Below, piece by piece: positions 5,931 to 32,000 of a stretch of DNA of 32,000 nt. Position numbers and translations under genes: made by a program. The DNA is taken from contig CP091279.1 in NCBI GenBank assembly GCA_021650915.1, positions 1,080,001 through 1,112,000 on the forward strand, in the 5' to 3' direction. This DNA is from Candidatus Brocadia sp. (GTDB lineage: Bacteria > Planctomycetota > Brocadiia > Brocadiales > Brocadiaceae). Under the pieces are notes generated by a model. It was not told where the DNA came from. It saw only the letters and a program-made list of their open reading frames with translations, and ran no database searches. Positions within the stretch are counted from its first letter, which is position 1, and each line of letters opens with the position of its first letter.

Positions 5931-5971
5931 GATATGCAGATGTAATAATTCTAAAAGACAGGAGGTGTAAA

Positions 5972-6202: not shown

Positions 6203-6624
6203 AGACTTTTCTGGATACTTCTTCTCTCATTAAGCTTTATCATCAGGAAGAAGGGGCTGATTTTGTAATGGATGCCCTTTCCAACGATATCGAAGAAATA
6301 CTCCTCTCAGAGCTTGCCGTTTTGGAATTCCGTTCTGCCTTATGGAAGAAGATAAGGGAAAAGGAGATAGAGGAGAAGGTAGCCATCGAAGTTATTCAAT
6401 GTTTCCAAAAAGACAGGGATAACTTCCAATGAATATTGTTGCAATCTGATATTGTCGAATCGGCTTCGTACTTACTGATGAAATACGGCAACCGTGGTTT
6501 AAGAACGTTAGATTCCCTGCAATTAGCAACAGCATTAACTTTGAGGGAAGAGAAATGTATTTTTTTTACCTCCGATAAGTTATTGCGGACTTTGTTTGCA
6601 GAAGAACAGCTTAAAGTTTTATAA
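6199..6624 (+). pseudogene. vapC: PIN-domain (VapC-type) toxin gene interrupted by one in-frame TGA at 6430-6432
   Basis: The N-terminal part is MKTFLDTSSLIKLYHQEEG, with the typical PIN acidic D5. The C-terminal part is LRTLDSLQLATAL...FFTSDKLL, carrying the conserved D. ORFs 6199-6432 and 6436-6624 are in the same frame and separated only by TGA. Confidence 0.7.
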
Positions 6625-6638
6625 AGGTTCGCTGTACG

Positions 6639-9600
6639 TTGAGCAAAATTACCGAAAGCGATATTGAACAATATACCATTGAGGAATTAAAAACCCTGGG
6701 CTTTCAGTTCCTTCACGGGCCAGATATTGCTCCCGATGGTGAGTTTCCCGAACGGCAGGCTTATAGTGACATTGTTTTGGTGGGCAGGCTTAGGGCTGCC
6801 ATTCAAAGGCTTAATCCAAACATCCCTGCGGGTGCCAGGGAACAGGCACTTCGTGAAGTGCAGCGTATAAATTCACCTGAATTGCTTACCAATAATGAGT
6901 CATTTCACCATTTCCTTACCGATGGTGTTCCAGTTACTTATCGTTCTCCTCTCCCTCTGGGAGAGGTTGGGAGAGGGTCTGATGAAAAATCAGATTACGT
7001 CTGGCTCATCGATTTTAACAATCCTCTCAACAATGAATTTCTGATGGTCAATCAGTACACGGTCATTGAGAACAACCAGAACAAACGGCCTGATATTTTA
7101 CTCTTTGTCAATGGCATTCCCTTAGTGCTGATTGAATTAAAAAATCCAGCAGATGAAAATGCTACCATCAAAAAGGCCTTTGACCAGATACAAACCTACA
7201 AGGCGACTATTCCAAGTCTTTTTACCTTCAACGCCTTTTGTGTTATTTCTGATGGTCACGAATGCAAGGCTGGCAGCACTTCGGCGGGTTACAATCGTTT
7301 TATGGCATGGAAGCTTGCAAACGGCAAAAAAGAGGTTTCAAAGTTTGTACCGGAGTTAGAAATCCTCATACAAGGGATGCTAAATCCCATCACCTTATTA
7401 GACCTTGTTCGCAACTTCATCGTATTTGAAAAATCTATTTCTACGAAACCCTCACCCTTACATCCCTCTCCCAGTGGGAGAGGGAACGCGGGAGAGGGTT
7501 CTGTCTTACAGATTGAAACGGTGAAGAAGGTGGCAGCCTATCATCAATATTATGCGGTCAATAAGGCTATCGAAAGTACCCTGCGGGCGGCAGGGTACTT
7601 TCAACCCTCCCTCAGTCCCTCCCAAAAGGAGGGAATCAATGCCTCTCCCTTTGTGAGAGATACAAGAGAGGGTGTTTGTAGAGAGAGTCATTATAGAGGT
7701 GGTTTGGTGTTTTCCGGGTTACTCAATAAGGCAAAAGAGTTAAGAAAAAAACAAACTCCGGCGGAAGAAGTGTTTTGGCAATTAGTGCGCGACAAAAAAT
7801 TCTTTGGTCTAAAATTCCGAAGACAACACCAGATTGGACCTTACATTGTTGACTTTTACTGCCACGAACATAAACTGATTGTTGAATTAGATGGAGAAAT
7901 TCATCAAATAGAAGGACAGCAAAAACATGATACAACGAAGGATAAATATCTTACCTCATTAGGAAACAAAGTTATTCGTTTCGCCAATAATGAGATTTTA
8001 ACCCAAACAGATAAAACCCTTGAAAAAATAGCCAATCTCCTCTCCCTTTGGGAGAGGTCGGGAGAGGGTAACGTAGGCAATAAAAAAGCAGGAGTTATTT
8101 GGCATACACAGGGTTCTGGGAAAAGCCTGAGCATGGTGTTTTATGCGGGCAAACTGATTACATCCGAGGCGATGCAAAATCCCACTATTGTTGTTATCAC
8201 TGACCGTAATGACCTGGATGACCAGTTGTTTGACACCTTTGCATCTTCAAAACAGTTGTTGAGGCAAGAGCCGGTGCAGGCAAGAGACAGGGAGGATTTG
8301 AAAGACCTGTTGAAAGTGGCTTCCGGCGGCATTGTGTTCACTACTATTCAAAAGTTTTTACCAGAAGCAGGTAAGGCAGCATACGATCGGCTTTCTGACA
8401 GGGACAACATCGTTGTTATAGCGGATGAAGCCCACAGAACCCAATATGGCTTTGAGGCAAAGTTGCATGACGAAAGAGACAAGGACACCAAAGAGGTCAT
8501 TGGAAAACGCATAGCCTACGGCTTTGCCAAGTATATGAGAGATGCCTTACCCAATGCGACTTACATTGGTTTTACCGGCACACCCATTGAAAGCACAGAC
8601 GTAAACACCCCGGCAGTATTTGGGCAGTATGTTGACATATACGATATTTCACAATCAGTCGCCGATGGCGCCACCGTTAAGATTTATTACGAAAGCCGTC
8701 TGGCAAAGGTCAATCTGGATGAAGAAGGCAGACGGTTGATTGAGGAGTTTGATAAAGAGCTTGAAGAAGATGAGGAAATAACCGACAAGCAAAGGGCTAA
8801 AGCCAAGTGGACAAAGCTTGAGGCCATTGTAGGCAATCAGGAAAGGATAAAAAACCTGGCCAGGGATATTGTTACTCATTTTGAGCAGCGTCAAGCGGTA
8901 TTTGATGGTAAGGCTATGATTGTAGCGATGAGTCGCAGGATTGCAGTTGACCTCTACAATGAGATCATCAAGTTAAGACCGGAGTGGTATAATGACGACC
9001 TGACCAAGGGCGTAATCAAAGTTATTATGACTGCATCCAGTGCCGATGGCCCTGTTATGCAGAAGCAGCACACCACGAAAACACAACGCAAGGCTTTATC
9101 TGATAGAATGAAAGACCCGGCAGACCCCTTGAAACTGGTTGTTGTTCGGGATATGTGGCTTACGGGTTTTGATGCGCCTTGTTTGCATACGCTTTATGTA
9201 GATAAACCCATGAGAGGTCACAATCTGATGCAAGCCATAGCACGGGTAAACAGGATATTCAAAGACAAACCCGGTGGTTTAGTGGTGGATTATTTAGGCA
9301 TTGCAACTGACCTCAAAAAGGCATTGGCCTTCTATGCCGATTCAGGGGGAAAAGGCGATCCGGCAGAGAGCCAGGAAAAGGCCGTTGAGATGTTTATTGA
9401 AAAATTGGAGGTAGTACGCCAACTCTTCCTTGAAGAAAGCAAAACAAAAGAAGTTATCCTTGCCGCAGAACCTACCGCTTATTATGGCAACTATCCGGGA
9501 ACAGGCTTTAATTACAAGCGTTTCTTTTCAGCGTCACCCAAAGAAAAACTTTCGATCATCTTGCAGGCAGAGGAACATATTTTGGGTCTGGCAGATGGTA

Positions 9601-10214
9601 AGAACCGTTTTATCAATGAGGTAACATTGCTTAGTAAGGCTTTTGCCTTGTCCATACCTCACGAAAAAGCATTGGCGGTAAAAGATGAAGTTGCATTCTT
9701 TCAGGCTGTAAAGGCACGGCTTGTAAAGTTTATAAGCGACGGCACAGGCAGGTCAGATATAGATATCGAGACGGCCATAAAGCAGATAATCGACGAGGCA
9801 TTGAGTTCAGACCAGGTTGTAGATATTTTTGATGCAGCAGGTATAAAAAAGCCTGAGATATCCATTTTGTCTGAGGAATTTTTGTTAGAGATACAGGGAA
9901 TGAAGCATCAGAACCTTGCCCTTGAATTGTTGAAGCGAATCCTCAATGACGAAATCAGAAGCCGTTCAAAAACTAACCTGGTGAGAAGTAAGGCATTGCT
10001 TGAAATGCTTGAGACCACCATCAAAAAGTATCAGAACAATTTGCTTTCAGCCGCCGAAATTATTCAGAAATTGATTGAGTTAGCCAGAGAGATCAAGACA
10101 GAAGACCGAAGAGGTGTAAAACTTGGTTTGTCCGAAGATGAATTGGCTTTCTACGATGCGTTGGAGACGAACAACAGTGCAGTTCAGGTTTTAGGTGATG
10201 AACGGCTCAGATTG
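6639..10214 (+). CDS. hsdR: Type I restriction endonuclease subunit HsdR, 5' exon. It carries in-frame insertions and is interrupted by a group II intron; the exon end is approximate.
   Basis: TTG start. The N-terminus is [24 protein letters not shown]. The nuclease-core region is [20 protein letters not shown]. Helicase motifs are [13 protein letters not shown] (I), [13 protein letters not shown] (II), IGFTGTP (III) and QAIARVNR (VI). HsdR homology ends at ...[24 protein letters not shown], and the ORF then runs 9 more codons into the intron to a TGA at 10239-10241. Confidence 0.9.
6948..6978 (+). repeat. 31-nt palindromic mini-element, copy 1, in frame inside hsdR
   Basis: Sequence CCTCTCCCTCTGGGAGAGGTTGGGAGAGGGT, translated as [12 protein letters not shown]. 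It interrupts the conserved ...PVTYR / ...YVWLIDF N-terminal region. Confidence 0.85.
7464..7499 (+). repeat. 36-nt palindromic mini-element, copy 2, in frame inside hsdR
   Basis: Sequence CCCTCTCCCAGTGGGAGAGGGAACGCGGGAGAGGGT, translated as [13 protein letters not shown]. It contains a perfect 9-bp hairpin, CCCTCTCCC/GGGAGAGGG. Confidence 0.85.
7642..7673 (+). repeat. Degenerate copy 3 of the palindromic mini-element, at the left edge of the DUF559 module
   Basis: Sequence CCTCTCCCTTTGTGAGAGATACAAGAGAGGGT. It has the same ends as the other copies, but the G-rich arms are decayed. Confidence 0.6.
7731..8035 (+). other. DUF559 (Vsr-like/restriction-endonuclease-fold) domain encoded in frame inside hsdR
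   Basis: [59 protein letters not shown]...[19 protein letters not shown] matches the DUF559 pattern (R..T.aE..LW..Lr...f.RQ..ig.yivDF.c....l.iElDG..H). It sits between the conserved [13 protein letters not shown] segment and helicase motif I. Confidence 0.8.
8039..8069 (+). repeat. 31-nt palindromic mini-element, copy 4, at the right edge of the DUF559 module
   Basis: Sequence CCTCTCCCTTTGGGAGAGGTCGGGAGAGGGT, translated as [12 protein letters not shown]. Confidence 0.85.
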
Positions 10215-12214
10215 GCGTGCCTTGAAGTATGGGATACCTGAGTGGTTGAAAATATCACCTCTGCGAGCCTAAATCCTCGTAGAGAAGTTTGTACCTATGC
10301 GTATACAAAGGAGCAATCCGTGTGCGTAGAAGGATAGCGTATTCCCGTGAGGGGTATGACGGAGTTACGAGGTACAGACGACCTTTTGGGGTGTATGAAT
10401 ATGGCGTGTTAGTTCGTGCCAACTGCCCTTTCTCAGTAAAGCACTGACAAATGTCCTTGTTGGAGATGATGCAAGCGATTCGGTGAAAACATCTCTGGAT
10501 AATGCGTTTGAACATACATCACGAAGGGAAAAGGGGTAATCCATATGACCGGGGGAGGACTTACGTCTTGGGAAGAAATTCCCTAACAGCGAGGTATAAG
10601 GGAAATCCGAAATCCAAGCTGTATGAGATGGTGACGGACGACTGGCTCTCACAGGTCTGTCTTTGAAGTCGTCAGCAGTGCTCATAATAGTTTCTGGTGT
10701 AAGCCGGAAATGAAGGGGCATAACCGTAGTGGAGTTGATGAAAGTGGTAGATTGAATACGTTCCATGAGAAAAGAGACTCTTTGCATGGGCAAGTAGTAG
10801 CAAGAGCCTCTCTTGTTTTGCCTCTGTCAGGAGGAATCTCGACTCAGGAAACACGATTGACAAGTCTATTATCCGGAATCAATCAAAAGGAACATATCGG
10901 GAGATGCTTAAGTATCATTCTTTAAGAGACAAGGTATTCAGTCTGAGAAACCTTTATGCGGCTTTTGGGCACGTAAAGAAGAATAAAGGCAAGGCTGGTC
11001 TCGACAGGGTAAGTATTAAGCAGTTTGAAAGTGACCTTGAGAATAATCTACAAGCTATTCACAAGGAACTGAAAACCGCCATATACAACCCTGCGCCCGT
11101 CTTAAGGGTCTACATTCCCAAAGGCAGGCATGACAAGAGACCTCTTGGCATTCCCATTGTCAAGGACAGGGTAGTACAGCAGGCGTTCAGACAAATCATA
11201 GAGCCAATATTCGAGAAAGAATTCTCGGATAACAGCTTTGGATTTCGTCCAAACAGATGCTGTCATGATGCTATCAAACGGATTGAACAGTATAAGCAGC
11301 AAGGGTATCGGAACATTTTGGACGCCGATATAAAGGCGTTCTATGACACCATACCTCACAAGCTTATCATGAACTCCTTGCGTGAGAAAATCGCTGACGG
11401 ATGGGTGTTGAACAGTATCGAGAACATGCTCAAGGCAGGGGTCATGGAGAACGGCATCGTGCACGAGACAAATCAAGGCACTCCGCAAGGAGGCGTCATA
11501 TCCCCCTTGCTTGCAAACCTTATCGGTGACATCATCGACAAGGAGCTTGAAAAGGCAGGATATAAATTTGTCCGCTATGCCGATGACTTCATTGTCATGA
11601 CTAAAACAAAAGAAGAACTCCCTACCGCCCTTCAGTACGTCAAAGAAATCATCGAAGGGAAACTTGAAATGAAGCTGAGCGAGGATAAAACCAGGCTCAC
11701 CAACTTCAAACGAGGCTTCCGGTTTCTCGGATATAATTTCATGGGCAAGAACAAGGGTGTAAGCATGAAATCCCTGGACAAACTCAAGGACGCCGTTAGA
11801 GACATCACCAAACGCACACAAGGCGTCAACCTGCAAGCCGTCATTGATACATTAAATCCTGTCATAAGGGGACATGTCAACTATTTTCGGCTGGGCAATG
11901 TACAAACGGTATATCGCTCGTTAGACTGCTGGGTACGCATGAGACTGAGAAGTTTCAAGTTTTCGAGAAAATGGAAAACTGACAACAAACGTTTCCCGGT
12001 ACACCGATTCTTTAAGATGGGGTTACTCTCATTTGAAAGAGAATTTCTTAAGGCACGTGCGAAGGCATGATAGTTTACTTTTCTCTGCTCCAGAGCAACA
12101 CTATGGGGTCGCTAACTACGGGAAAGCCGTATGGTTTAAAAGGATACTTTGTCACGTTGTCCAAAGTATCTGGCGACGATTGGGGGTTGGAGGCGGTTCG
12201 CCTCCTTCCTACCA
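10215..12214 (+). mobile_element. Group II intron (~2.0 kb) inserted in the 3' part of hsdR; boundaries are good to about +/-6 nt
   Basis: An RT/maturase ORF lies inside it. HsdR homology stops at ~10211-10217 and resumes at ~12213-12218. About 690 nt of structured non-coding sequence precede the ORF. The 3' end is GGAGGCGGTTCGCCTCCTTCCTAC (a hairpin followed by a ..AC end). The 5' end reads GCGTGCC rather than a clean GTGYG. Confidence 0.75.
10904..12070 (+). CDS. Group II intron reverse transcriptase/maturase (no endonuclease domain)
   Basis: 388 aa. Motifs are RPLGIPIVKDRVVQQA (RT2), FGFRPNR (RT3), DADIKAFYDTIPH (RT4), GTPQGGVISPLLANL (RT4-5) and VRYADDFIV (RT5 YADD). The X/maturase region is LNPVIRGHVNYFRLGN. 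Confidence 0.95.
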   Translation: MLKYHSLRDKVFSLRNLYAAFGHVKKNKGKAGLDRVSIKQFESDLENNLQAIHKELKTAIYNPAPVLRVYIPKGRHDKRPLGIPIVKDRVVQQAFRQIIEPIFEKEFSDNSFGFRPNRCCHDAIKRIEQYKQQGYRNILDADIKAFYDTIPHKLIMNSLREKIADGWVLNSIENMLKAGVMENGIVHETNQGTPQGGVISPLLANLIGDIIDKELEKAGYKFVRYADDFIVMTKTKEELPTALQYVKEIIEGKLEMKLSEDKTRLTNFKRGFRFLGYNFMGKNKGVSMKSLDKLKDAVRDITKRTQGVNLQAVIDTLNPVIRGHVNYFRLGNVQTVYRSLDCWVRMRLRSFKFSRKWKTDNKRFPVHRFFKMGLLSFEREFLKARAKA

Positions 12215-20067: not shown

Positions 20068-20535
20068 CTTCCTATTGTATGCATCTGACCTTTGTCTTTC
20101 ACAGCTCATCCAGGGCATGCATTGCTTAACCTTCGATAAGATAAAGAGAAGGACGAAAAAGAGGCATTAGCATTTCTGAGGAATGTTGAAGAATTTAAAA
20201 AAATTGATGAGAAAATATGGAGATAAATAATCGTTATAGTCTGCAAGCCTTGATCTGTGCGTTTTAGAACGAGAAATGATATAGCGATTATTTTTGCAAT
20301 TAAGCACCAGGATACAAAAAAGAAAAAATTCCAAAAAAACTCGAAGCATTAAACAAACAATCCGTTGTCGAATAATGAAGGTTTGACACTGACCCTCCTT
20401 TCCTGGAGAGAAAACGATTACGGGAAAAACTGAAAGGGCGACAAGCATTTTTCTCGGATTACCAAAAGAGTTGCAGTTGACTTGTAAGCAATAAAGACTT
20501 GCCCCCTTTTGATTCGTCTCGAATTGTGGATTTGT

Positions 20536-20847
20536 ATGGAGGAAATACTGGTGACGTTAGAAGAGATTAAGAAGGTTGCAATTCCAGCTTGTAGGGAGTT
20601 TAATGTTAAAAAATTGGATATCTTTGGATCACTTGCGCGCGGAGAAGTGACTTCCGGGAGCGATGTAGATTTGCTCGTTGAATTTGAGAACCCCGCTTTG
20701 AATCCTGCAAAAAGGTACTTTGGACTGCTGCATCGGCTTGAGGATACTTTGCATTGTGAAGTTGACCTGCTTACAATCAATGGGCTAAGGAATCCCTATT
20801 TTCACAGCCATGTATTAAAGGAAAAGATTACCATCTATGAGGGATGA
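20536..20847 (+). CDS. mntA: MNT-type nucleotidyltransferase (antitoxin of an MNT/HEPN pair)
   Basis: The motif is LDIFGSLARGEVTSGSDVDLLVEF (GS-x9-11-DxD). I chose the start at MEEILVTLEEIKK. The stop overlaps the HEPN gene start by 11 nt. Confidence 0.85.
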   Translation: MEEILVTLEEIKKVAIPACREFNVKKLDIFGSLARGEVTSGSDVDLLVEFENPALNPAKRYFGLLHRLEDTLHCEVDLLTINGLRNPYFHSHVLKEKITIYEG

Positions 20848-21193
20848 AATCATAAAGTATCTCTTTGACATCAAAGAAGCATCTTTAGCTATTTTCCAAT
20901 TTGTGCACGGGAAGAAGTTTGAAGATTACGAACAGGACGAATTACTTCGGAGTGGCGTCGAGAGAAAGTTTGAGATCATTGGAGAAGCGCTGAACAGGAT
21001 CAAAAATGAAGATGCTGCTGTACTCGATAAGATAAGAGATTATCGCAACATTGTATCTTTCAGGAACATTCTCGCACATGGTTACGATACCGTTGACGAC
21101 AGAATCGTATGAGGAATCATTGAAGAGAACTTGGGTAATTTGCTCGAAGATATCAAGAGATTGAGTGAGCAGCAAGAATTAACCCTGAACTAA
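20837..21193 (+). pseudogene. hepT: HEPN/DUF86 (HepT-type) toxin gene with an in-frame TGA at 21110-21112
   Basis: The RX4HXY motif is FRNILAHGYDTVDDRIV, followed by TGA. The same frame then continues GIIEENLGNLLEDIKRLSEQQELTLN to TAA at 21191-21193. In DUF86 proteins a Trp follows this segment (..vd.e.vW.ii...lp.L). Confidence 0.75.
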
Positions 21194-21427: not shown

Positions 21428-21940
21428 AATTAAGTATGGTGTCCGTACGCAGTAACATTTGTTTATTCTTACGGGTTAAAGTCCCGTCCGGGGAATTATC
21501 CGTTCACCCCGGTAGTTCAAGGGAGCGGCGTCTGAGCAATCAGGGGTCGTAAGTTCCCAATTGGCAAAACCGCAGGCCGCAGCGCAAGCGAACCTACAAG
21601 TAGCCTCGTCAATACAAATTGAAGATGCCGACCCCGTGGACACGTGGGGAAGGCCGAAGATTGCAGACTCAGGCAACGGAAGGAGTCTGTAATATCTTCC
21701 GGGGTAGCAGGGGCGGTATGCAGTGGAAGATAAACAGACCAGTGCTGGAGACCCTATGCAGTAATGTTTGAGGGGCATAAACCGCTCTGTATAAGGAAAC
21801 GAAATCACAGCGGGCTGTATAGGGAGTCGGAGGGGTTCATGATACCGTTTGAGGACAAGGGACAACAAAACCCTGTTCGAGGAAAGGAACCCTGCTTTGT
21901 TCATGCAACCGAAGAGTAGAGGAAAAGGGAGATTGCAGAA

Positions 21941-23257
21941 ATGCTAACAACCCCGGAAAAGATCAGGATACTACAGAGGAAGCTATACCGAAAGGCCAAG
22001 CAAGAACCAACCTACCGCTTCTACGCCCTCTATGACAAGGTATTCCGGGCAGACATCCTCAGTCATGCTTACACCCTTGTCCGTGCCAACAAAGGGAGCG
22101 CCGGGATAGACGGCGTAACCTTCGAGGCCATCGAGGAAAGAGAAGGGGTATCCGCCTTTCTGGCGGAACTGCAAGAAGCACTCAGGAGCAAGACCTATCA
22201 AGCAAGCCCTGTAAAACGAGTAATGATACCCAAGACGGACGGAACGGAACGCCCGTTAGGCATTCCCACCATCCGTGACAGGGTAGCGCAGATGGCCGTA
22301 AAACTGGTCATAGAACCCATTTTTGAAGCCGATTTCTGCGAATGTTCATACGGGTTCAGGCCGAAGAAATCTGCCCACGATGCCGTAGATGACGTAGCAT
22401 ATACCCTCAACAAGGGATATACCGAAATCATAGACGCCGACCTGTCCAAATACTTTGACACCATCCCCCATGCCAAGCTTATGGCTGTGGTAGCAGAGCG
22501 CATCAGTGACGGTGAGATACTGCACCTGATAAAGACGTGGCTCAAGGCTCCGGTCATAGAAAAAGGCAGAGACGGAAAACAAAGGAACATCGGCGGAGGT
22601 AAAGGGAACCGGAAAGGCACACCTCAAGGAGGAGTAATCTCACCGTTACTAGCCAATCTCTACCTGCACCTCCTGGACAGGATATGGGAGAGACATCGAC
22701 TGGAGAAGAAACTCGGAGCCAGATTAGTACGCTTTGCCGATGACTTTGTCGTACTGTGCAGGCAAGGAACTGAACAGCCAATGGCGATAACAAAGCGGGT
22801 GCTGGACAAACTGGGACTGACGTTAAACGAGGCAAAGAGCCGTGTAGTAGACGCCATGAAAGAGGGATTTACCTTTCTTGGGTTTGAACTTCAAAAGAGG
22901 AAGAATTGGCGCACGGGGAAGAGTTATCCCCATGTTCAGCCGTCGAAGAAATCTCTCAAGAAGATAAAAGACCACATTACGGCACTTACCAGCAGGAACA
23001 GGTCCCCTCTACCGTTTGAAGCGATAGTCAAAGAGGTGAATACGGCACTGATAGGATGGACAGGATACTTCCATTATCGCAATTGCAGCAGAGTCCTCAA
23101 GCAAGTAAGAGAACACGCTCAATTCCGGCTTCGGATACACCTGTACAGACGTCATAAAATCAGAGACAGGAAGACAGGGCTTAAGCGATACACAAACAGC
23201 ATGTTATATGAGAGATATGGTCTTTACAAAGTGCCGACCACAGCGGTATGGAGATAG
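21941..23257 (+). CDS. Group II intron reverse transcriptase/maturase (no En domain)
   Basis: 438 aa. Motifs are RPLGIPTIRDRVAQMA, YGFRPKKSAHDA, DADLSKYFDTIPH, GTPQGGVISPLLANLYL and VRFADDFVV (FADD variant). The maturase X region is ALIGWTGYFHYRN. Confidence 0.95.
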   Translation: MLTTPEKIRILQRKLYRKAKQEPTYRFYALYDKVFRADILSHAYTLVRANKGSAGIDGVTFEAIEEREGVSAFLAELQEALRSKTYQASPVKRVMIPKTDGTERPLGIPTIRDRVAQMAVKLVIEPIFEADFCECSYGFRPKKSAHDAVDDVAYTLNKGYTEIIDADLSKYFDTIPHAKLMAVVAERISDGEILHLIKTWLKAPVIEKGRDGKQRNIGGGKGNRKGTPQGGVISPLLANLYLHLLDRIWERHRLEKKLGARLVRFADDFVVLCRQGTEQPMAITKRVLDKLGLTLNEAKSRVVDAMKEGFTFLGFELQKRKNWRTGKSYPHVQPSKKSLKKIKDHITALTSRNRSPLPFEAIVKEVNTALIGWTGYFHYRNCSRVLKQVREHAQFRLRIHLYRRHKIRDRKTGLKRYTNSMLYERYGLYKVPTTAVWR

Positions 23258-23285
23258 CGCATGCCTTATGGTGAAGGGCATCGGA

Positions 23286-23318
23286 AAGCCGTGTGCGGGA
23301 AAACCGCAAGCACGGTTT
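23286..23318 (+). ncRNA. Group II intron domain V (catalytic hairpin) of intron 2
   Basis: AAGCCGUGU-GCGG-GAAAA-CCGC-AA-GCACGGUUU. It has a 9-bp lower stem with the AGC triad, a 2-nt AA bulge, a 4-bp upper stem and a GAAA-type loop. I paired it by hand. Confidence 0.85.
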
Positions 23319-23447
23319 GATGAGGGAGGACTGGCGAAATAGCATGGTGAGGCTACTGAGGCACTGCCAGACGAAAGGGGCAGAAACAGATAGGCCAACC
23401 TAAACTATAGATAGCCAGTTCCCTACTCTACCCGAAATTGCCATGAG

Positions 23448-23777
23448 ATGATGGTTGCTCAAATGGCTCATGCCGTGGAAGGAGCACAGCTTGCTACCGC
23501 TATGATTCGAGCAGAATATGCAATGGAGAACGAAAGGATTAGAAATCTTTTTTTAACAACGTTTTCTTATGATGTGCCACAGAAACTTTCAGCCCTCTCA
23601 AAGATGCTTTCATCATTATTAGCTGATGAGCAGATGGGACCTGACAGAAAGACAAAGATTGTGAAACAGATTCATTCCGAAGTGGAACAGTTAAATACCC
23701 TTTCTGCTGAGCTGCACACCATACTTAAATCCCGATCGAATGTCATTCCAGATGAAGGAAAAGCCGCGAAGCCTTAA
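23448..23777 (+). CDS. Hypothetical protein (109 aa, helical/coiled-coil-like), convergent with the helicase operon
   Basis: Only an ORF with plausible composition. There is no clear RBS and no recognised motif. The frame is open back to 23415, inside the possible intron 3' end. Confidence 0.3.
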   Translation: MMVAQMAHAVEGAQLATAMIRAEYAMENERIRNLFLTTFSYDVPQKLSALSKMLSSLLADEQMGPDRKTKIVKQIHSEVEQLNTLSAELHTILKSRSNVIPDEGKAAKP

Positions 23778-23818: not shown

Positions 23819-24007
23819 CTATATCGAATAAACGCCATCCCGCTTTTGAATGGATATTCCCCAGTCTGTTTGATTAATCCTCTTTACTTCAAAAACCTCG
23901 TGTCCTTTGAATCTCACGGCTTTTGTCATCTCATTTACGGTCACTTCGGAGTCGGATAACGGACGGGTGATCCTGGCATTTTGAAAGATCTTCCTAAACC
24001 TTCTCAT
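23819..24007 (-). CDS. Small hypothetical protein (62 aa), last gene of the candidate system
   Basis: Its ATG lies 14 nt inside the 3' end of the helicase gene (23994-24007 overlap), which suggests coupling. The sequence is MRRFRKIFQNARITRPLSDSEVTVNEMTKAVRFKGHEVFEVKRINQTDWGISIQKRDGVYSI, with no recognised motif. Confidence 0.45.
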   Translation of the reverse strand: MRRFRKIFQNARITRPLSDSEVTVNEMTKAVRFKGHEVFEVKRINQTDWGISIQKRDGVYSI

Positions 24008-26858
24008 GGGTAATCCCTTCCCTTATAGCCAAATTAAACATCAGTGCCTCAGCGGCTTCTTCGGGAAACGGAACTCGTGATGCAAGCCTTTCTGTCGTTT
24101 TTGCATCCAGTTTGTATTTCTCACCCATGACAACTTTAAACCAGCGTTCTCGATCCATAACCACACGATACATCTTCTCATCCTGGGTTTCTGAAATGAA
24201 GGGAAAATATATGTGTATTGGTTTGCCACACTTCTCCACCTTGGCGCCAATCCGATCAATGCGGCCGGTTCTTTGCTCTAACGTGCTCGGATTCCAGCAG
24301 AGATCATGATGAATAACGTAGCGGCAATTGAGGTGCAGATCGACGCCCTCCGCCATAACACTGCTGGCGACCAAAACATCAGGGTAAAAAGGCGTATTAA
24401 AAGTGAGCATGATTTTCTGACGGGATTCCTGTTTCGTGGTTCCATTTATCAACCTCACATTGGGCAAAAGCCGCTCACTTTTCTCCCCTTGCAATTCATC
24501 CTCGGTGTATGCTTTGGCTATATCCACACCCATAAAACTTCCTGTTTGGATGGACAGCAAGGCATCTGCAAAATCCCTCCTTTCTGCTTCTCCACAGTGA
24601 TTCTGTAAAAAGTCAAGGAAGTGTATAAGTGATTCCTGAAGCGAAAGACCGCTACCGTCTTTTGCATGAAAAATTGCCTCAAAATCGTTTTCGTCTAATT
24701 TGGTTTTTTCGAGGGGAAAATACCGAATGAGAAACGTGGGGGTGCGCAAATACCTTCGCACAATATCCAGCATTTCCGCCTCATGTATTTGTAGCGCGGG
24801 ATATGTCCGAATCATACTTGCAATTCTCTCATCCGTTACCAACCGCAGTTTCGAGTCCTGATCCAAAAATCTTGTCCCAATTTTTTCCAGTCTGTCCATG
24901 ACCTCGTCAGATGCACACCCAATTTTTTTTGCGCCTAGCTCACGAATCTTGTTGCGCATGGCTTCTGAAATGTATTGCCGTAATACCTTACCAGTTGCAA
25001 CATAGTGACAAAAAATCAGGACCTTTTCACCTTGAAGCCATAAAGCAATTACTTTATCGACAGTGGCCTTCACTTTTGGATGCAGTTCATAGTACGCGGA
25101 ATCCTTTTGAGGTAATGACCGCTCCAGTTGATTCAAATACCATTCTAAGGCTGGATCTTCCTTCAAATTTAGATTCGACTCGTCATCAGTATCATCGTCG
25201 TCTGTAGGCCTCACATCTTGCCGGTCTTTTCTCGTCTTCAGGAAGGCTTCATAACTGGATGCCAGTCCCTCTGAGAAAAAGGGTCTGGACTCTGGGTTTA
25301 GCGCGACCAGTCTGGCGGATAGGAGAAATGGCAAAAGTGACGTTCCTGCGATATCAAGTCCCTCTGTAAGGCATTCGTTGTTTTCACGTATCATCGATTT
25401 TCCCACAAAGCGCTTGCGTCGTTCAATCAAACCCTCCTTGAACGGTACCTGTTTTGGACGCATGTGTCGTACCACCCATTTTTTCAACGATGCCTCAGCG
25501 TCTTTCATTCGCTGTTTCGTTTGTCCGTAGGATTTAATCGCCAACGAGACAGATGGTGTAAGTCCAATCTGATTAGATCGGACAATAGACCACCATTCAT
25601 GGACCGATGTCAACTTTTGCCCATTCACCAGTAAATCATCCTCGTTCAAACGTTCCCAATCATGATCAAGTCTTACGGCCGCCTCCTGAGCCTGATCAAG
25701 TTTAGTCTTCAGATCGGACAATTCAGCTTGAAAATGGGCTAGCCCACCCGCAGGAGCCGTCGAATTCTTCCACGATATCCCCTGAAATCGCTCAATAACG
25801 GAACATAATTCATAATGTCCTAACTGGAACGGCGTTGCGGTGAGAAAAATCATACGTTCGAACATGCCTGCAAGATGTCCTTTGAGTTGTAGTTCCTCGG
25901 CATCATCTTCGGCATCCTTCGATTGAAACAGTGATTTTGATTGAAATAATGACGCAAGTTTTGTATCAGGATTTTTGAGATGATGCGCTTCATCCAGAAT
26001 TAATAAAGGCAATTGAATCTGTAAATTGGCCAGGCATTTTACCCAAACTTCCCGGATTTCATCGTTCAGGATATGGCGTGCATCAAGGATTCTGTCATCA
26101 AGGTTTTTCGACTCTCTCTGAGGTATTTCCCGAATCTTCTCATAAAGGGATTGAACCTCTATCTCCTTAAGCGCATCCTTTACACCCTTTGGTACAGGGT
26201 CATCTTTTTCCTCAACACCAAATTTCTTCAAAATACCACGCCATTTTTCGGTATCCGAATACAGCAATTTCTCCCAAAGCTCTTCGCCATGACGATCATA
26301 CTTCGTAATCCTTAAAAGTCGGCTAAGCACACGATACAAAGCCCTTTTAAGGCGGTCTGTATCCCAACGGCGATGAAGGGCACGCTGTATCAGTGCCAGC
26401 TTGATCCAAACACCGGAGTCATCCGTTAATCCCCGGCTCATCGCGCCGTGCGTCAGAAAAACGATAGATTTTCGATCTTCTTTCTTATCATCAAGGAGTT
26501 TCAGAAAATCAACACCGGTTTCAGCGCGATCACAACGTATAGATGCGGATAGAGGCTCTGGTAAGCATTTTTCTCTAAACACTTCGAAATCCCGCGGCCA
26601 CTTTTCTTTCAGCGTCGAAGGAACCATAACAACAACCGGTCTTTTCTTTTTGTCGTTCGTGGTAACTGACAGGGCAACGGCAATGGCTACAAACGTCTTA
26701 CCCATACCGACCTCATCGGCAAGGATCAATCCCGGTTGATTCTCCAATCGGCGTAATATTTCTTTTGCGGTGCGTTGCTGTCGTTCGGCATCGTTTTCTG
26801 ATATGCGCCCCTTAACAAAAAGATTGATCGCGTCGTTGTAAGGATAGAGATAACTCAT
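23994..26858 (-). CDS. SNF2-type superfamily-2 helicase/translocase (954 aa)
   Basis: Motif I is LILADEVGMGKTFVAIA, motif II is LLILDEAHHLKN, motif III is IFLTATPFQL, motif V region is ASSVMAEGVDLH, and motif VI is WNPSTLEQRTGRIDRIG. A long, ~350-aa insertion lies between motifs III and IV. The start overlaps the PLD gene stop in ATGA. Confidence 0.9.
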   Translation of the reverse strand: MSYLYPYNDAINLFVKGRISENDAERQQRTAKEILRRLENQPGLILADEVGMGKTFVAIAVALSVTTNDKKKRPVVVMVPSTLKEKWPRDFEVFREKCLPEPLSASIRCDRAETGVDFLKLLDDKKEDRKSIVFLTHGAMSRGLTDDSGVWIKLALIQRALHRRWDTDRLKRALYRVLSRLLRITKYDRHGEELWEKLLYSDTEKWRGILKKFGVEEKDDPVPKGVKDALKEIEVQSLYEKIREIPQRESKNLDDRILDARHILNDEIREVWVKCLANLQIQLPLLILDEAHHLKNPDTKLASLFQSKSLFQSKDAEDDAEELQLKGHLAGMFERMIFLTATPFQLGHYELCSVIERFQGISWKNSTAPAGGLAHFQAELSDLKTKLDQAQEAAVRLDHDWERLNEDDLLVNGQKLTSVHEWWSIVRSNQIGLTPSVSLAIKSYGQTKQRMKDAEASLKKWVVRHMRPKQVPFKEGLIERRKRFVGKSMIRENNECLTEGLDIAGTSLLPFLLSARLVALNPESRPFFSEGLASSYEAFLKTRKDRQDVRPTDDDDTDDESNLNLKEDPALEWYLNQLERSLPQKDSAYYELHPKVKATVDKVIALWLQGEKVLIFCHYVATGKVLRQYISEAMRNKIRELGAKKIGCASDEVMDRLEKIGTRFLDQDSKLRLVTDERIASMIRTYPALQIHEAEMLDIVRRYLRTPTFLIRYFPLEKTKLDENDFEAIFHAKDGSGLSLQESLIHFLDFLQNHCGEAERRDFADALLSIQTGSFMGVDIAKAYTEDELQGEKSERLLPNVRLINGTTKQESRQKIMLTFNTPFYPDVLVASSVMAEGVDLHLNCRYVIHHDLCWNPSTLEQRTGRIDRIGAKVEKCGKPIHIYFPFISETQDEKMYRVVMDRERWFKVVMGEKYKLDAKTTERLASRVPFPEEAAEALMFNLAIREGITHEKV

Positions 26859-28939
26859 TTCAAAGACTCCCGGAATGCCTTCAATACGTAAGCTTTAATT
26901 AGGTCATCCGATATCTGAATGGATGGTAAAATCGTCTCTTTAATTTCACGAATGATTTTACGGAGTTCCTCCGCGACATCCTCACGCTTTAGGCTTCTGT
27001 GGGCATCCTCATTAGGATTAATTCGCCCCAGTTCAAGTAAAATTTCGGCTACTAAGAACGCCTTCTCATCCTCCGACTTGCCTTCCCTGATAATGGTCTG
27101 GGCTAGGGTAAGAACACCAATAGGCCCGCGAAGCCTCCAATTGAGCGATTCTTTTGTGTAAAACGGCCTTTCCAACCTATCCTTCAGCGATCGGAGAACC
27201 CATGATATCTTACGGGTACGCTGGAATAAAAACTTCGTCGTATCAACCTTTTGATGAGGATCTATGACAACGTCAGGTTTATTGAGTTGTTGTTTCTTCT
27301 TTAGCCATATGCCTATAACCTGGTGCAGCGGACGGGCTGAGGTAAGAATAGACATCAAGATTTCCAAAGGCAGGTCTTTGAGTTCAGGCGGCGGTGGAAG
27401 GGCTGAAGCGCTTTCAATATTCACGGGCCACCAGGCAGGATTCTTTGCGCCATCCCAGATCACATGAAATCCAGAAGGTGGCAAATCTGATTTCCATGCC
27501 AGGCGTTGTGCAAGGGGTTTACCATCTTCTACCCATTTTCTTTCGTCATAAAAGACTTCCTTTCCCTCTTTCTGCGATAGGGAAAAGCCCTTCGGTAGGT
27601 CTTGAGAACTGAAATGGAATCGGACAAACGATACCATATGCTCATCCCGGCCGTAAATGGCATAACCAAATACGGATGGGAGCAGTGCGGGGCACTCTGA
27701 ATCCGGTTCGTCTTCATTGGCTTGCCTATCCCATACGGTATACTCATCAATTGCCAAATAATCCTTTGACAAAGAGCTTTTTTCGAACATGTTGACTGCG
27801 GCTCTATTTTGCGTGCGGGATGCCATGTAGATAATATTTGCTTCAAAATTGGTGGTACTTCCAACACCTGTGCCCGACGCGGTAAAGTTGCTTGAGCCTA
27901 TGACGTAGAGCGCCCATTCATCATTCTGAAGCCATATCGACTTCATATGCAAAGGCCGGATCGTTTTGATTTCTTTTGTATCAAAACATTCTATTACCCT
28001 GGCAAAACGGATATCGACACTACTTCGCTGATTAGGCGCTGATTCCAGGAGACTTTTCGGGGCGCTTACAATCAGTTGCTTTTTGTCTTTGTTATCCTCC
28101 GCATGAACATAATAGCAGACACTAGCCGCTCCACGCTGGTTTAAGACCTCCCATATCTTTTTTGCCGGAATATTTGGTGAATCCGGCGAATCAAAAAATG
28201 GACTCGTGATCCACGCATAATCGGGCGGTCTCGATGACGCTTGATTCCAATAATTTCTGACTTGATCAAAGAGATCAGGCTTTCCGGAGCCTAAAAGCAA
28301 AGGATGGATTCGAACATCTCTGCCACCCCTGTATGGTTCAATGCGTCCCCAATTTCTGGTGCGTTTCCCGATATCTGTTAGAAAATTATGCCATCTGCTA
28401 ACTTCTGGTTGATCAGGGGAATTGGTACAACGATCGACCATCTCTTTTAAGAAATCCAGGATAGACTTTAGCACTGCCATTGGAATATCCGAACCTCCGT
28501 GGAAATCCAGAGAACCAAAGATTTCCTGATTCATCCGGTATCCCTGTTCGGTAAGATTGGCCGATCCCACGATCACCCTGACACAGTTTGACCAGCAAAG
28601 AACGGATATTTTTGCGTGCATAATCGCTTTTGGTATTCGGGACGGTATGATGTCCCACCGCAAGTTTCGGGCGCCCTTGCAGTGATGCTGGTCAACAAGT
28701 ACCGATATACACTGAACAGAGGACATCTTTTCTTCCCGTTCAACAAGAAATACTGAGCCGTCGTTGTCGGGGTCGGATTCCATCCTGAGAAAACGGCTCA
28801 GGCAATCCTCCTCAAAAAATACGGGTGAAAATGTATAGGTAGTGGCTATACAGCCGATTGGCTCCCCGGCATCGGGTGGCGGAGACCAATAATCAATGAG
28901 CTTTGCGTATCCCGTATGCTGATTGTTGGTTCTACTCAT
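26855..28939 (-). CDS. PLD-superfamily (double HKD-like) nuclease-type protein with an uncharacterised ~330-aa C-terminal region (694 aa)
   Basis: There are two HxK...GSxN motifs: HAKISVLCWSNCVRVIVGSANLT (~aa 108-130) and HMKSIWLQNDEWALYVIGSSNFT (~aa 331-353). The start ATG overlaps the stop of the upstream gene (ATGAGTAG, 28932-28939). Confidence 0.85.
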   Translation of the reverse strand: MSRTNNQHTGYAKLIDYWSPPPDAGEPIGCIATTYTFSPVFFEEDCLSRFLRMESDPDNDGSVFLVEREEKMSSVQCISVLVDQHHCKGARNLRWDIIPSRIPKAIMHAKISVLCWSNCVRVIVGSANLTEQGYRMNQEIFGSLDFHGGSDIPMAVLKSILDFLKEMVDRCTNSPDQPEVSRWHNFLTDIGKRTRNWGRIEPYRGGRDVRIHPLLLGSGKPDLFDQVRNYWNQASSRPPDYAWITSPFFDSPDSPNIPAKKIWEVLNQRGAASVCYYVHAEDNKDKKQLIVSAPKSLLESAPNQRSSVDIRFARVIECFDTKEIKTIRPLHMKSIWLQNDEWALYVIGSSNFTASGTGVGSTTNFEANIIYMASRTQNRAAVNMFEKSSLSKDYLAIDEYTVWDRQANEDEPDSECPALLPSVFGYAIYGRDEHMVSFVRFHFSSQDLPKGFSLSQKEGKEVFYDERKWVEDGKPLAQRLAWKSDLPPSGFHVIWDGAKNPAWWPVNIESASALPPPPELKDLPLEILMSILTSARPLHQVIGIWLKKKQQLNKPDVVIDPHQKVDTTKFLFQRTRKISWVLRSLKDRLERPFYTKESLNWRLRGPIGVLTLAQTIIREGKSEDEKAFLVAEILLELGRINPNEDAHRSLKREDVAEELRKIIREIKETILPSIQISDDLIKAYVLKAFRESLK

Positions 28940-30254
28940 TACTGACTCGTTTCAAATCTCTTAAAAATGACCAGATGGCATTCGTGCGGTAGGGATGCAC
29001 GTACGAATCATCCATACGCGCAGGTTCATCCCTCCGGTACAAAGGACGAACACAGTACGTATTATCATCATATCGGTCTATCCATGGATTCTTGCCAAGC
29101 GGAGGTTTTTTCTTTTGCACGGCAAAATGATGCTCCAGGAGTTGCCCAACCCAGGTTTCACAATTTCCGTTGACCCGAAGATCCCCAAATCCGTCAATAA
29201 ATCCCGACGCATAGCCAGAAAGGTGCAACCGATCGTATGCCTTTGAAAAGGCATCCGGCACATCTTTATGGGCATGTTTTACCGCCTCAAGACCAGCGAG
29301 TTCCTTTATATTGGTTTTTCTCTGTTTACCGCTCATATACCAGAGACAATCATCGAATGCGTCTTGAATCAGGCGGGCAAAGTGTTCGTATGACCTGATG
29401 CATTCCAGGAGTTCTCTTAGATCAGGAGAAGCCGATTTCAATAAAGCAACATGCAGTTCTTTTTCGGCCTGATTTTTTAGCCATAAGCGGCTTCCTTCAT
29501 TCGAAATAAGAAAACGGATTATTTGACTTCGGTTGGAAGACGGTTCTTCGCACAGCATGATAAAAAGAGACTCGTTTTCTTTTGCTTTCGCACGATAGGG
29601 AGCAAACTTTTCCGCGATGATGCTGTTCCACTTCCAGTTCCATTCACGGGCCACCCCGCTTTTGGTCAGGCCATCTTTCACTGCATTTGTTAAAGCCTGA
29701 CGAAGACTAGAACCTGGACCTTGTTCCCGTGAGCAGAAACCGGCAAGGTCTTGTTCGGTTTCCCAAATACGTATAAGACAGTTGCCGGCTTCACCCAATC
29801 TTCCCTGACGGAGGATATCCAGGTCTTCAGCCAGCGTGCGATAGACACCATGAAATCCAAAAACGGAAGGTGCCTTCAGGTAGTTTTGGGCGCACAGAGG
29901 TTTCCCCTTTCGCATCGCATCGGTTGCTTTTTCACGACCGGGAAGTCCCAATATTTCGCTCGTTGCATTCCGGAAAGTTCCGACAAGCGCTTGAACAGCG
30001 TACCACTCATACACCTGATACGGCGGGGTAATCCCATCCCCGGCAACCTGATCATCGTCAAATTCAGCACAAACAAAGGCGCCTGCTGCCATCGCGGTCA
30101 AGAAGCGCGGGTGTCTCATACGTTCGCGGACGCCTGGCACAAGCCTTGTGCCAAGGCGATCAGCGATTAAAGACAATCCCAAAGGATCGAGCGAGCCTTC
30201 GCTGTCAGCTACTTTATCATATTCGGTTAATAAGGGTGCAAGTTCTGTCATCAT
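28932..30254 (-). CDS. Hypothetical protein (440 aa), first gene of the candidate system; no recognised domain
   Basis: A long ORF with uniform composition, coupled to the PLD gene. The N-terminal segment is DSEGSLDPLGLSLIADRLGTRLVPGVRERMRHPRFLTAMAAGAFV. I saw no P-loop, no nuclease motif and no Cys cluster. Confidence 0.75.
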   Translation of the reverse strand: MMTELAPLLTEYDKVADSEGSLDPLGLSLIADRLGTRLVPGVRERMRHPRFLTAMAAGAFVCAEFDDDQVAGDGITPPYQVYEWYAVQALVGTFRNATSEILGLPGREKATDAMRKGKPLCAQNYLKAPSVFGFHGVYRTLAEDLDILRQGRLGEAGNCLIRIWETEQDLAGFCSREQGPGSSLRQALTNAVKDGLTKSGVAREWNWKWNSIIAEKFAPYRAKAKENESLFIMLCEEPSSNRSQIIRFLISNEGSRLWLKNQAEKELHVALLKSASPDLRELLECIRSYEHFARLIQDAFDDCLWYMSGKQRKTNIKELAGLEAVKHAHKDVPDAFSKAYDRLHLSGYASGFIDGFGDLRVNGNCETWVGQLLEHHFAVQKKKPPLGKNPWIDRYDDNTYCVRPLYRRDEPARMDDSYVHPYRTNAIWSFLRDLKRVSNE

Positions 30255-30314: not shown

Positions 30315-30716
30315 TTATGCTGAGAAATTTTTCTTAACGTACTCTATCGTATATTCAAATAATGGCCTGGCATTCTTTACAAAATTCCTTATCTCTTCCC
30401 ATCGAATATCCAGATATTCGTGCGTAATAATGTTTCGTAACCTGGCAAATTCACACGATCTTTCGACAGTGTTTTTATCAAATTCATGGAAAGACATAAA
30501 CGATCTCAAAACCTCTCTGTAAGTGCCCGGTAAAGATTTTTTTTCGGACGCCAGGAGAATTCGTACGACATCAATTGAGGCATTGACGATATTTTCTCTC
30601 CAATGCTCTGAACTTCTCCGCCTTACCCTGTCATTCTGGTATTCATCCCAACTGAGTTCCAGATAAATATTCCAGTCAGCGAGTTCGTTCGTCAAAAATT
30701 TTAGTAGCGTTGTCAA
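30315..30716 (-). pseudogene. Orphan HEPN/DUF86 gene, 5'-truncated by the IS end. The first 17 nt of the ORF, including its TTG start, are IS sequence.
   Basis: The RX4HXY motif is ARLRNIITHEYLDIRWEEI. The IS copy-2 terminus lies at 30700, so the codons for MTTLLK derive from the IS end. No MNT partner is adjacent. The stop lies 60 nt upstream of the 440-aa gene, on the same strand. Confidence 0.65.
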
Positions 30717-32000
30717 GTGGAGACCTGAGAAAAGTCCTCCAATGTATAGTTGTCACGCATCAAAGCCGTTGTAGTAATAGGCAAGCCGAATTTTGGTAAC
30801 GTTCAGCGCCCCGGCAACACTCCATTTGCTCACATTCACCCGCAGGTTAACCGTACGCATGACGCGCTCTACTTTACTTGTCGTTCTGCCATTGAGCCTC
30901 TTTTCTATCGCCGTAAACATATCAGGCCTGGCATTCTCAAGATAGGATGCGGTATGAGTATATCCCTTCGACAAACAATGCTGAATCACCGCATCCAATC
31001 GTTTCCTCTTGGACTCTATCATTTTCTCGATGGTCTTCTGACAATCAACCAATGGCCGTATCGCACAGACCTCCATAAGCTCCGACATCACCTCCAGCCA
31101 TTCTTTCCCCCTTGCTCTTGACCCCATCTTGCCACAATACATACTTTGCCTGATACGGAATATGCCACAAACATCTCTGTACAAGCACCTTGATCTTACC
31201 TTTCAAACTATCCAAAATAGAGGTGTCTCCATCGGTTATCAAAAGAAACTGGGAAAACTTCCTGAACACCTTAACACTCTTACCAAAAAGCTTATCCCAA
31301 CTACCGTTGTAATCCCCTATGTCAAGCCCTGCCACTCTCACCCCTCCACCGCTCTTGTATTGCACAAAGACCTTGAGTTCCTTGCCTCGTTTGGCTATCC
31401 CCTTAATCCCTACCCCTGTCCCGTCTGCTTCTCCCAGGGGAAGTCCCTTCTCGTCGAGTTGAAAATCTATCTCTGCTGCCGTCTTTTGTACCGATTTCCC
31501 TATCGTCATCTTGTCTACTGTCCAGCCAAACATCGACACGATCTTCTTCGCTACCCGGTAGGTCGTTAACGATCCTACCAGCCCAAGCTTCCGATACGTC
31601 TCCGGTGGTATTCGCTTCATCCGCTCCATCCCCAGAAGCTTTCGCGTTATATACATCTTATGACCGCACCTCTTGCACTGCACCTGCAACTGCTCTAATC
31701 TCAACCACTGAAAGACCGTCAGTATCTTCGTCTCTTTTCCATGCCTCGTCTTCCAGATAAACTCCTTGTCATTCCCACATTCGTCGCAGCAAAATGGCTT
31801 CCGTGATTGCGCCATCGCACTCTCACCAAAACCAACCACGATCTTCTGAATAAAATCCCTTAATATCTCCGGCAGTATCTTGCAAAATGCCTTGAGAATC
31901 GACTCCAGGCTGCCGTCCTTTAATTCAACCCGAATTTGACAACCAAATTCTATTGTGATACCATCTGTGCATGGGGTTGCTCCCATATAGCCCTCCTTCT
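30700..32000 (-). mobile_element. Insertion sequence, copy 2. It is inverted relative to copy 1 and runs off the window end.
   Basis: It is the reverse complement of 12850-14149 with only a few differences by eye (W>G, R>Q and A>T substitutions and one extra C/G at 31107-31111). Confidence 0.85.
30753..31986 (-). pseudogene. IS transposase gene, frameshifted copy
   Basis: It is split into 313-aa and 143-aa ORFs. Copy 2 has a run of five C at 31107-31111 (GGGGG on the coding strand) where copy 1 has GGGG at 13759-13762. Everything else is co-linear with the 410-aa transposase. Confidence 0.85.

Follow-up and report, generated by a model that had tools for sequence, protein, structure and literature searches.

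Does a minus-strand operon in a 32,000-nt stretch of Candidatus Brocadia DNA (the window, within which all coordinates below are given) encode a defence system, and if so, one that has been described before? The original prediction read positions 23819-30254 as a candidate undescribed defence system of four coupled genes, here called A (440 aa), B (694 aa), C (954 aa) and D (62 aa). We find that the first three, spanning 23994-30254 on the minus strand, are a sharply bounded, widely transferred cassette that usually lies among defence systems, and that they probably make up a self-contained defence system against phages or plasmids, one that resembles Azaca and represents a family not named before.

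All four open reading frames (ORFs) lie on the minus strand exactly where they had been placed, with the overlap letters given for them. Gene A (28932-30254, from the ORF list) encodes an all-alpha protein in the position of a system-specific third subunit, the one held by ZacA and PDC-M27A in the systems discussed below. Gene B (26855-28939) encodes a single-chain, double-HKD nuclease of the phospholipase D (PLD) family with a C-terminal beta-sandwich and a helical domain, as judged from Pfam, PADLOC and a structure model, and gene C (23994-26858) encodes an SNF2-family ATPase/translocase of helicase superfamily 2 (SF2), as judged from Pfam, PADLOC and NCBIfam. ORF D, again from the ORF list, occupies 23819-24007. 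Stop and start codons overlap in ATGAGTAG between A and B, in ATGA between B and C and in ATGAGAAGGTTTAG between C and D.

A profile of the A family confirmed at least 173 relatives among 185,579 species genomes (one genome per species), a lower bound given that the scan was pattern-based; 80 loci were fetched from it. When the window's A, B, C and D proteins were searched by tblastn against 82 related loci, homologues of A, B and C stood in that order on one strand in essentially every locus with enough DNA (~80), at 33-87% identity to the window proteins. Relatives of the 440-aa gene are thus found beside PLD and SNF2 genes, and A is conserved as the third gene of the set, in line with the proposal that it is the system's specific component. 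The start/stop overlaps are conserved too: A and B overlap in 48 of 78 related loci (gaps of 0-7 nt being the other frequent spacings) and the 4-nt ATGA overlap of B and C recurs in 41 of 70, counts for which the start codon closest to the upstream stop was picked, with a bias toward small gaps. Separate gene calls at ten metagenomic or genomic loci reproduce the A-B-C overlaps. Such conservation implies co-translation and balanced stoichiometry, in keeping with a complex. The limits of the cassette emerged from six other Brocadia-lineage genomes, which show 82-90% DNA similarity to the window from the start codon of A (30251) to the stop of C (~24000) and have unrelated flanks, so that 23994-30254 is a discrete 6.26-kb cassette. 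ORF clustering across 55-69 loci revealed no conserved accessory gene directly upstream of A or downstream of C, and a promoter and terminator scan returned counts at the level of shuffled sequence.

The relatives span more than ten phyla, including Planctomycetota, Desulfobacterota, Verrucomicrobiota, Acidobacteriota, Bacteroidota, Nitrospirota and Chloroflexota, with further copies in Ignavibacteriota, Bdellovibrionota, Spirochaetota and the Alpha-, Beta- and Gammaproteobacteria; a scan of IMG/VR viral contigs found no phage-borne relatives. Several copies are damaged. At one locus (L045, 3616-4387), an internal deletion in a decayed cassette has brought B residues 1-166 next to C residues 856-945, and in Planctomycetia H5_AMX3 (L005) B is truncated and C is absent. 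In L002, B and C are each split into shorter gene calls while the same operon is intact in L001, which suggests frameshifts or assembly errors. The anammox planctomycete Candidatus Brocadia fulgida has a protein, BROFUL_01525, with 100% identity to A. Another of its deposited proteins, BROFUL_01524, has only 469 aa and matches B at 100% identity over 62% of B, its longest recorded contig measures 7.7 kb, and the exact sequence of helicase C is absent from the protein collection; the operon may therefore be truncated or fragmented in the older public B. fulgida assembly.

Does the fourth ORF belong to this unit? Its 14-nt overlap with the end of the helicase gene, the purine-rich stretch (GGGAAGGGA) that precedes its ATG and its annotation as a gene in deposited B. 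fulgida genomes would all fit a four-gene system in which a coupled regulator or antitoxin-like subunit is supplied by the 62-aa protein. Yet D had no tblastn match in any of the 82 related loci, including Brocadia relatives whose DNA similarity of ~89% ends at the helicase stop near 24000. D lies beyond that point, in the stretch that separates the helicase gene from a group II intron, whose 3' end is at 23284-23431 (Rfam Intron_gpII). It has no Pfam or NCBIfam family and forms a one-member cluster among ~15 billion proteins, and no downstream gene of any sort is conserved next to the A-B-C family. We rejected D as a system component because it is absent from the 82 loci, lies outside the shared DNA and is a singleton, leaving a single coupled unit of three genes rather than four. 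The four-gene system is exceedingly improbable, and on the sequence comparisons D should be regarded as an orphan ORF, or a spurious one, in strain-specific DNA. On the other side of the cassette, an orphan HepT gene (30315-30716, minus), which lacks an MNT partner, lies 61 nt upstream of gene A; it too was rejected as a component, since no co-directional gene is conserved upstream of A, Brocadia relatives included.

What, then, do the three proteins look like? A belongs to a sizeable family of uniform length (about 430-450 aa), which at 50% identity comprises 982 clusters for E<=1e-3 and 391 for E<=1e-30. As predicted, it has no recognisable family: neither Pfam (E<=0.01) nor NCBIfam assigns it, and DUF6361, to which we return below, is not among the Pfam families matched at E<=1 by 66 of its relatives (25 of 29 families listed, the other four matched by one member each). 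An AlphaFold2 model built from a 66-sequence alignment (pLDDT 91.7, pTM 0.88) is nearly all alpha-helical, with a single small beta-hairpin at residues 392-402, and residues 1 to ~19 are predicted to be disordered and are conserved in sequence. Foldseek matched this model to no PDB structure (best E 0.33), and a profile search of PDB sequences gave nothing credible. Thirteen columns are invariant down to relatives of ~30% identity (P24, R45, E83, W84, Y125, L126, G133, W164, E290, H376, Q380, K383 and R423), and the polar residues among them, R45, E83, H376, Q380, K383 and R423, could form a recognition pocket.

Both enzymatic partners carry the motifs originally ascribed to them. In B, the first HKD motif (H108-A-K110...GSAN128, with S126; 28556-28618, minus) and the second (H331-M-K333...GSSN351, with G348 and S349; 27887-27949, minus) are found at the predicted positions, and the H, K, S and N columns of both, which include the catalytic H, K and N residues, are invariant in an alignment of 55 homologues, as is G348. 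Pfam recognises PLDc_2 (2.6e-10). The model of B (pLDDT 86.7) has three parts: a two-lobed PLD domain at about residues 25-400, a beta-sandwich at about 424-508 and a helical domain at about 525-693, the latter two being strongly conserved among homologues and without an identified relative. Foldseek matches B to Tdp1 (E 1.9e-10), PLD3 and PLD1, over the PLD lobes only; Tdp1 and PLD3 are PLD enzymes that act on DNA. In C, a motif search located a complete SNF2/SF2 set: Walker A or motif I (GMGKT, residues 51-55; 26694-26708, minus), motif II (DEAHH, 289-293; 25980-25994, minus), TATP at residue 340 and motif VI (QRTGRIDRIG, 862-871; 24246-24275, minus). Pfam assigns SNF2-rel_dom, ResIII and Helicase_C. 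Long insertions separate motifs I and II and motifs III and IV, and the PDB sequence matches (Rad54, Rad26, RapA and ZorD-like helicases) cover the C-terminal lobe only.

To which known systems are these proteins related? We compared them with the 5027 models of PADLOC-DB v2, judging matches by hidden Markov model (HMM) score without PADLOC's coverage and score thresholds. B matched ZacB best (9.4e-13, 45.9 bits, model positions 163-349 of 586), followed by DrmC (1e-5) and PDC-M27B (1.3e-5, with no single stretch significant on its own); the best ZacB and PDC-M27B matches leave a C-terminal region of ~300 aa uncovered. C matched PDC-M27C (5.7e-40, 135 bits), DrmD (7.6e-29) and ZacC (3.3e-26, 90 bits), with the best-scoring stretches all in the C-terminal helicase lobe. 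Window A had PDC-M27A as its sole match (7e-4, residues 4-37 only) and did not match the ZacA model. Among its relatives, PDC-M27A was matched by 34 of 66 close members (best 5.9e-7) and 8 of 66 distant ones, and ZacA weakly by 1 of 66 close and 5 of 66 distant ones (best 5.1e-5); single members matched Cmr5 and RT_UG33, and no other model recurred. All three proteins thus point to the same two systems, Azaca and PDC-M27.

Azaca is reportedly due to Millman et al. 2022, although the name was not found in the text of the Millman preprint. The system consists of ZacA (a DUF6361 protein), the PLD protein ZacB and the SF2 helicase ZacC; it protects against phage T4 by more than 10^6-fold, and cleavage of T4 DNA in vitro needs all three proteins, the PLD site and the Walker A motif of ZacC (bioRxiv 10.1101/2025.07.10.664194). 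The Brocadia cassette has the same gene order, in which a protein of ~400 aa and uncharacterised function comes before a PLD nuclease and an SF2 helicase, and like Azaca it lacks a methylase; B and C give hits to the ZacB and ZacC HMMs, and a few A relatives to the ZacA HMM. It differs in that window A matches neither ZacA nor Pfam DUF6361, the B and C hits extend over part of the length and score far from member level, C is nearer to PDC-M27C and DrmD than to ZacC, and B is ~100 aa longer than the ZacB model, whose best-scoring match stops before the beta-sandwich and helical region of B. PDC-M27 is one of PADLOC's PDC-x entries, which are unpublished phage defence candidates; it is unvalidated, and we found no mention of it in searchable literature. 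It is likewise a three-gene candidate with A, B and C models and supplies the top match for C and the only one for window A, but that A match covers ~34 N-terminal residues and the scores are those of a sister family rather than a member. No deposited Azaca-like complex appeared in our PDB sequence searches.

A further branch came from plasmids. In tblastn searches of PLSDB with A, B and C, the only operon found was a divergent one on a 127-kb plasmid of Methylocystis sp. MJC1 (NZ_CP107561.1, 6613-10076 and across the origin; L083), in which a 446-aa A and a 707-aa ZacB-like B precede a helicase gene that crosses the record origin and lacks annotation in PLSDB. Upstream of it lie a QueC-like '7-cyano-7-deazaguanine synthase', an XRE regulator and a Fic protein. 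The Methylocystis-type A family is homologous to the Brocadia type over ~400 columns (hhalign probability 98.5%, E 2.2e-15, 15-18% identity). ZacA is matched by 6 of its 59 members (best 1.2e-5) and PDC-M27A by 4 of 59, the ZacA match of the Methylocystis A protein itself being confined to residues 27-91, and a homologue search seeded with that protein yielded a second Pfam-less family and no DUF6361 proteins. On the simplest picture from these comparisons, A-PLD-SNF2 cassettes would make up a superfamily whose branches number four or more: Azaca, PDC-M27, the Brocadia type and the Methylocystis type. Because the matches are far too weak for membership in Azaca or PDC-M27, we favour a new family, and the best reading of the A-B-C cassette is as an unnamed family of the Azaca/PDC-M27 kind that would be a distant relative of Azaca. 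Its earlier description as an undescribed, distinct system is therefore too strong in one respect, since Azaca and PDC-M27 share its gene content and B and C match their models, and holds in another, as the PADLOC scores fall far below member level.

Could this likeness instead reflect convergence, an independently assembled PLD and SNF2 system having arrived at the Azaca architecture with an A protein that shares only a short docking motif with ZacA and PDC-M27A? The A matches are indeed short (PDC-M27A at residues 4-37 of window A, ZacA at 27-91 of the Methylocystis protein), A matches neither DUF6361 nor any PDB fold, and the ~300-aa C-terminal region of B lies outside its best ZacB and PDC-M27B matches. 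Against this, Azaca and PDC-M27 supply the best or only defence-HMM matches of all three genes, with the gene order shared as well, and the two comparable A families are homologous end to end at 15-18% identity, which indicates that very low identity is normal in this superfamily. We regard convergence as unlikely. A neighbouring view, that the A-B-C genes (at least 173 species, more than ten phyla) form an independent unnamed defence family, in which A, with a fold that has no solved relative and polar invariant residues suggestive of a pocket for a ligand or DNA, would be a new kind of sensor gating a PLD-SNF2 nuclease, sharing at most a docking motif with ZacA and having a target specificity unlike the T4-type DNA preference of Azaca, is possible though doubtful.

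The DrmC and DrmD matches raise a different prospect, that of a degenerate or minimal DISARM (drmC + drmD), or a Dpd-type remnant (dpdK + dpdE), left after the loss of other components. As in class 1 DISARM, a protein of the PLD family is paired in a defence context with a helicase of the SNF2 family. B matches DrmC (1e-5) and DpdK (0.006), and C matches DrmD (7.6e-29 in PADLOC, 119 bits in NCBIfam) and DpdE (78 bits). All of these scores are nonetheless well under the curated NCBIfam cut-offs (22.8 bits against 133 for DrmC, 119 against 610 for DrmD, 78 against 500 for DpdE and 16 against 100 for DpdK), and DrmC is a short protein with a single HKD motif (153-256 positions in PADLOC models, 236 in NCBIfam), against two such motifs and 694 aa in B. 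Across ~70 loci, neither DrmA, DrmB/DUF1998 nor any methylase or dpdA-C gene is conserved beside the cassette, the conserved A gene stands in their place at every locus, and a spread over more than ten phyla speaks against a remnant, which makes this explanation very improbable. We rejected DISARM membership because DrmA, DrmB/DUF1998 and the methylase are neither in the cassette nor conserved nearby and DrmC and DrmD fall below cut-off, as the original prediction had anticipated from their absence. Membership in Dpd was rejected because DpdE and DpdK fall below the NCBIfam cut-off and the window contains no dpd genes. Mokosh, also set aside in that prediction, was rejected because the helicase is an SNF2-family SF2 protein and not of the superfamily 1 (SF1) type, the MkoA-like RNA helicase that Mokosh has paired or fused with a PLD nuclease; no Mokosh model appeared among the PADLOC matches of B or among the 25 of 44 listed for C. 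More broadly, Hachiman HamAB, Mokosh, the PLD-helicase fusions NF042964 and Zorya ZorD resemble the cassette in joining an NTP-driven helicase or translocase to a nuclease effector against foreign DNA. They differ in nuclease fold or helicase superfamily (an SF1 helicase in Mokosh, a DUF1837 nuclease in Hachiman, an Mrr-like nuclease in ZorD), and none has an A-type third subunit.

Is the cassette immune in function at all? Defence-like neighbourhoods surround eight of ten sampled loci. Within 10 kb of the cassette we found Zorya-like genes (a ZorA-like protein and an SNF2 helicase; L001), type III restriction-modification (R-M), SIR2-HerA and UvrD (L084), TIR, a WYL regulator and HsdM (L085), a DEAD/MZB helicase with TIR and Toprim (L086), a 1847-aa DEAD/YjiV_N helicase with PD-(D/E)XK (L089), ARPP-1 with a 1796-aa DEAD/MZB helicase (L090) and SACS with SNF2 (L092), and directly upstream of the cassette in L091 a Gabija-like OLD-TOPRIM ATPase and UvrD. 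Within the same distance, L087 has housekeeping genes only and L088 transposases and TumE. These gene neighbourhoods make a defence role of the A-B-C family likely.

The competing possibility is a DNA-repair or genome-maintenance module without an immune role, in which a Tdp1-like PLD phosphodiesterase removes protein-DNA adducts or blocked ends and the SNF2 protein clears or recognises stalled complexes. Structures of tyrosyl-DNA phosphodiesterase 1 head the Foldseek matches of B (E 1.9e-10, as above), one B homologue has a precomputed Tyr-DNA phosphodiesterase Pfam match (PF06087), C also resembles RapA, Rad26 and Rad54-type remodelers, and two of the neighbourhoods hold housekeeping or mobile genes only. 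The similarity of B to Tdp1 is, however, that of the general PLD fold (TM ~0.45, 10-12% identity), the joint HMM similarities of A, B and C are only to defence systems, and eight of ten neighbourhoods contain defence genes. The spread is patchy (at least 173 among 185,579 species genomes), and cassette flanks differ even among Brocadia species. A repair module is on balance quite improbable.

Several points nevertheless weigh against an Azaca-kind defence cassette. Matches to the Azaca and PDC-M27 models have low HMM scores and cover only part of the length, that of the A family being confined to the N-terminal ~35-65 residues. DUF6361, the domain by which ZacA is defined, was detected neither in A nor, with a threshold as loose as E<=1, in 66 relatives, and full-length homology of A and ZacA is unproven, A having been compared with ZacA and PDC-M27A through HMM models only. 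The best structural match of B, the DNA-repair enzyme Tdp1, is also compatible with a repair role; two of the ten sampled neighbourhoods (L087, L088) have no clear defence genes; and every functional statement about the family is made by analogy. In the window itself, the nearest clear multi-gene defence system, a type I R-M system, ends 13.7 kb away, with housekeeping-type NHL/thioredoxin, YdbH-like and DUF1318 genes in between. The defence island in which the cassette had been placed is accordingly looser than claimed: an MNT/HepT pair, the orphan HepT and an intron are close by, the R-M system is distant, and the VapBC-like pair named as a neighbour lies inside the R-M cluster.

If the cassette is a defence system of the Azaca kind, how might it act? 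A, B and C would be made from one translationally coupled transcript and, by analogy with BmAzaca, probably form one complex that targets DNA and needs all three proteins. C, as an SNF2-type ATPase, would bind double-stranded DNA and translocate on it, and the two HKD half-sites of B would combine into one metal-independent active site that cuts DNA via a phospho-histidine intermediate. A may be an obligatory non-enzymatic or sensor/adaptor subunit that licenses cutting. Its conserved, predicted-disordered N-terminal tail is a candidate docking peptide, a plausible role because this is the only part shared with PDC-M27A and ZacA at the HMM level. Neighbour clustering found no methyltransferase linked to the cassette in any locus, so that self and non-self are not set by a cognate methylation mark. 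Discrimination would probably depend on a feature of invader DNA, either base hypermodification (type IV-like) or a structure formed at replication or entry; type IV-like, modification-dependent recognition has been suggested for Azaca and T4 DNA.

The A-B-C family is not recognised at member level by PADLOC HMMs, and neither Pfam nor NCBIfam has anything for A. Once it is named and tested, the Azaca-type class would grow from a single studied example into a superfamily, and a comparison of branches would help to explain the role of the A/ZacA subunit and how foreign DNA is told apart without a methylase. The phage defences of anammox and other environmental bacteria that are hard to culture have received little study, and the cassette would add one more system to them. 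The family is useful for defence-system catalogues and for understanding ZacA-type subunits, and is not a new principle.

The remainder of the window holds other genes of defensive or mobile character. Immediately around the cassette, a 109-aa ORF (23448-23777, plus) converges on it, has no Pfam match, belongs to a three-member cluster and is labelled by one source as an 'osmosensitive K+ channel histidine kinase' fragment. Upstream of the orphan HepT, at 30753-31986, two ORFs without credible Pfam matches may, by eye only, be disrupted transposase remnants. The MNT/HepT toxin-antitoxin pair occupies 20509-21112 (plus), its MNT being an NTP_transf_2 protein that matches PADLOC PDC-S09 (1.3e-24). 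Two group II introns are present: the first has a reverse transcriptase (RT)/maturase ORF at 10904-12070 (plus), and the second spans 21478-23431 (plus), with Rfam group-II-D1D4-6 at 21478-21714, an RT ORF at 21941-23257 and the Intron_gpII domain V/VI at 23284-23431; other Brocadia genomes have the end of this second intron at other places.

The type I R-M cluster extends from hsdS (300-1478) to hsdR (6639-10241, plus). HsdR is unusually long (1200 aa); its HSDR_N and SWI2/SNF2 ATPase domains are separated by an inserted DUF559 domain (Vsr-like endonuclease, residues 363-468). Between hsdS and hsdR lie an 883-aa PHP + ABC-ATPase (AAA_21/SMC_N) protein (1523-4174, plus), which matches PADLOC Ppl (6.8e-33) and also PDC-M49A, and a 385-aa Schlafen/AlbA_2 + HATPase_c_4 protein (4153-5310, plus), which together look like an embedded defence gene pair. 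The Schlafen-like gene is followed at 5384-5970 by duplicated sequence with near-identical spurious minus-strand ORF starts (MMVHCMLSLRVKRSNLSLIKKRY...), a short repeat element of dispersed or tandem type that ends before a VapB-like ORF. At 5972-6624 (plus), this 76-aa antitoxin-like ORF precedes a PIN/VapC-like protein, recognised by eye, that is split by a stop at ~6433 into ORFs of 77 aa and 62 aa, and the two may, on the same visual judgement, be a disrupted VapBC pair within the R-M cluster.

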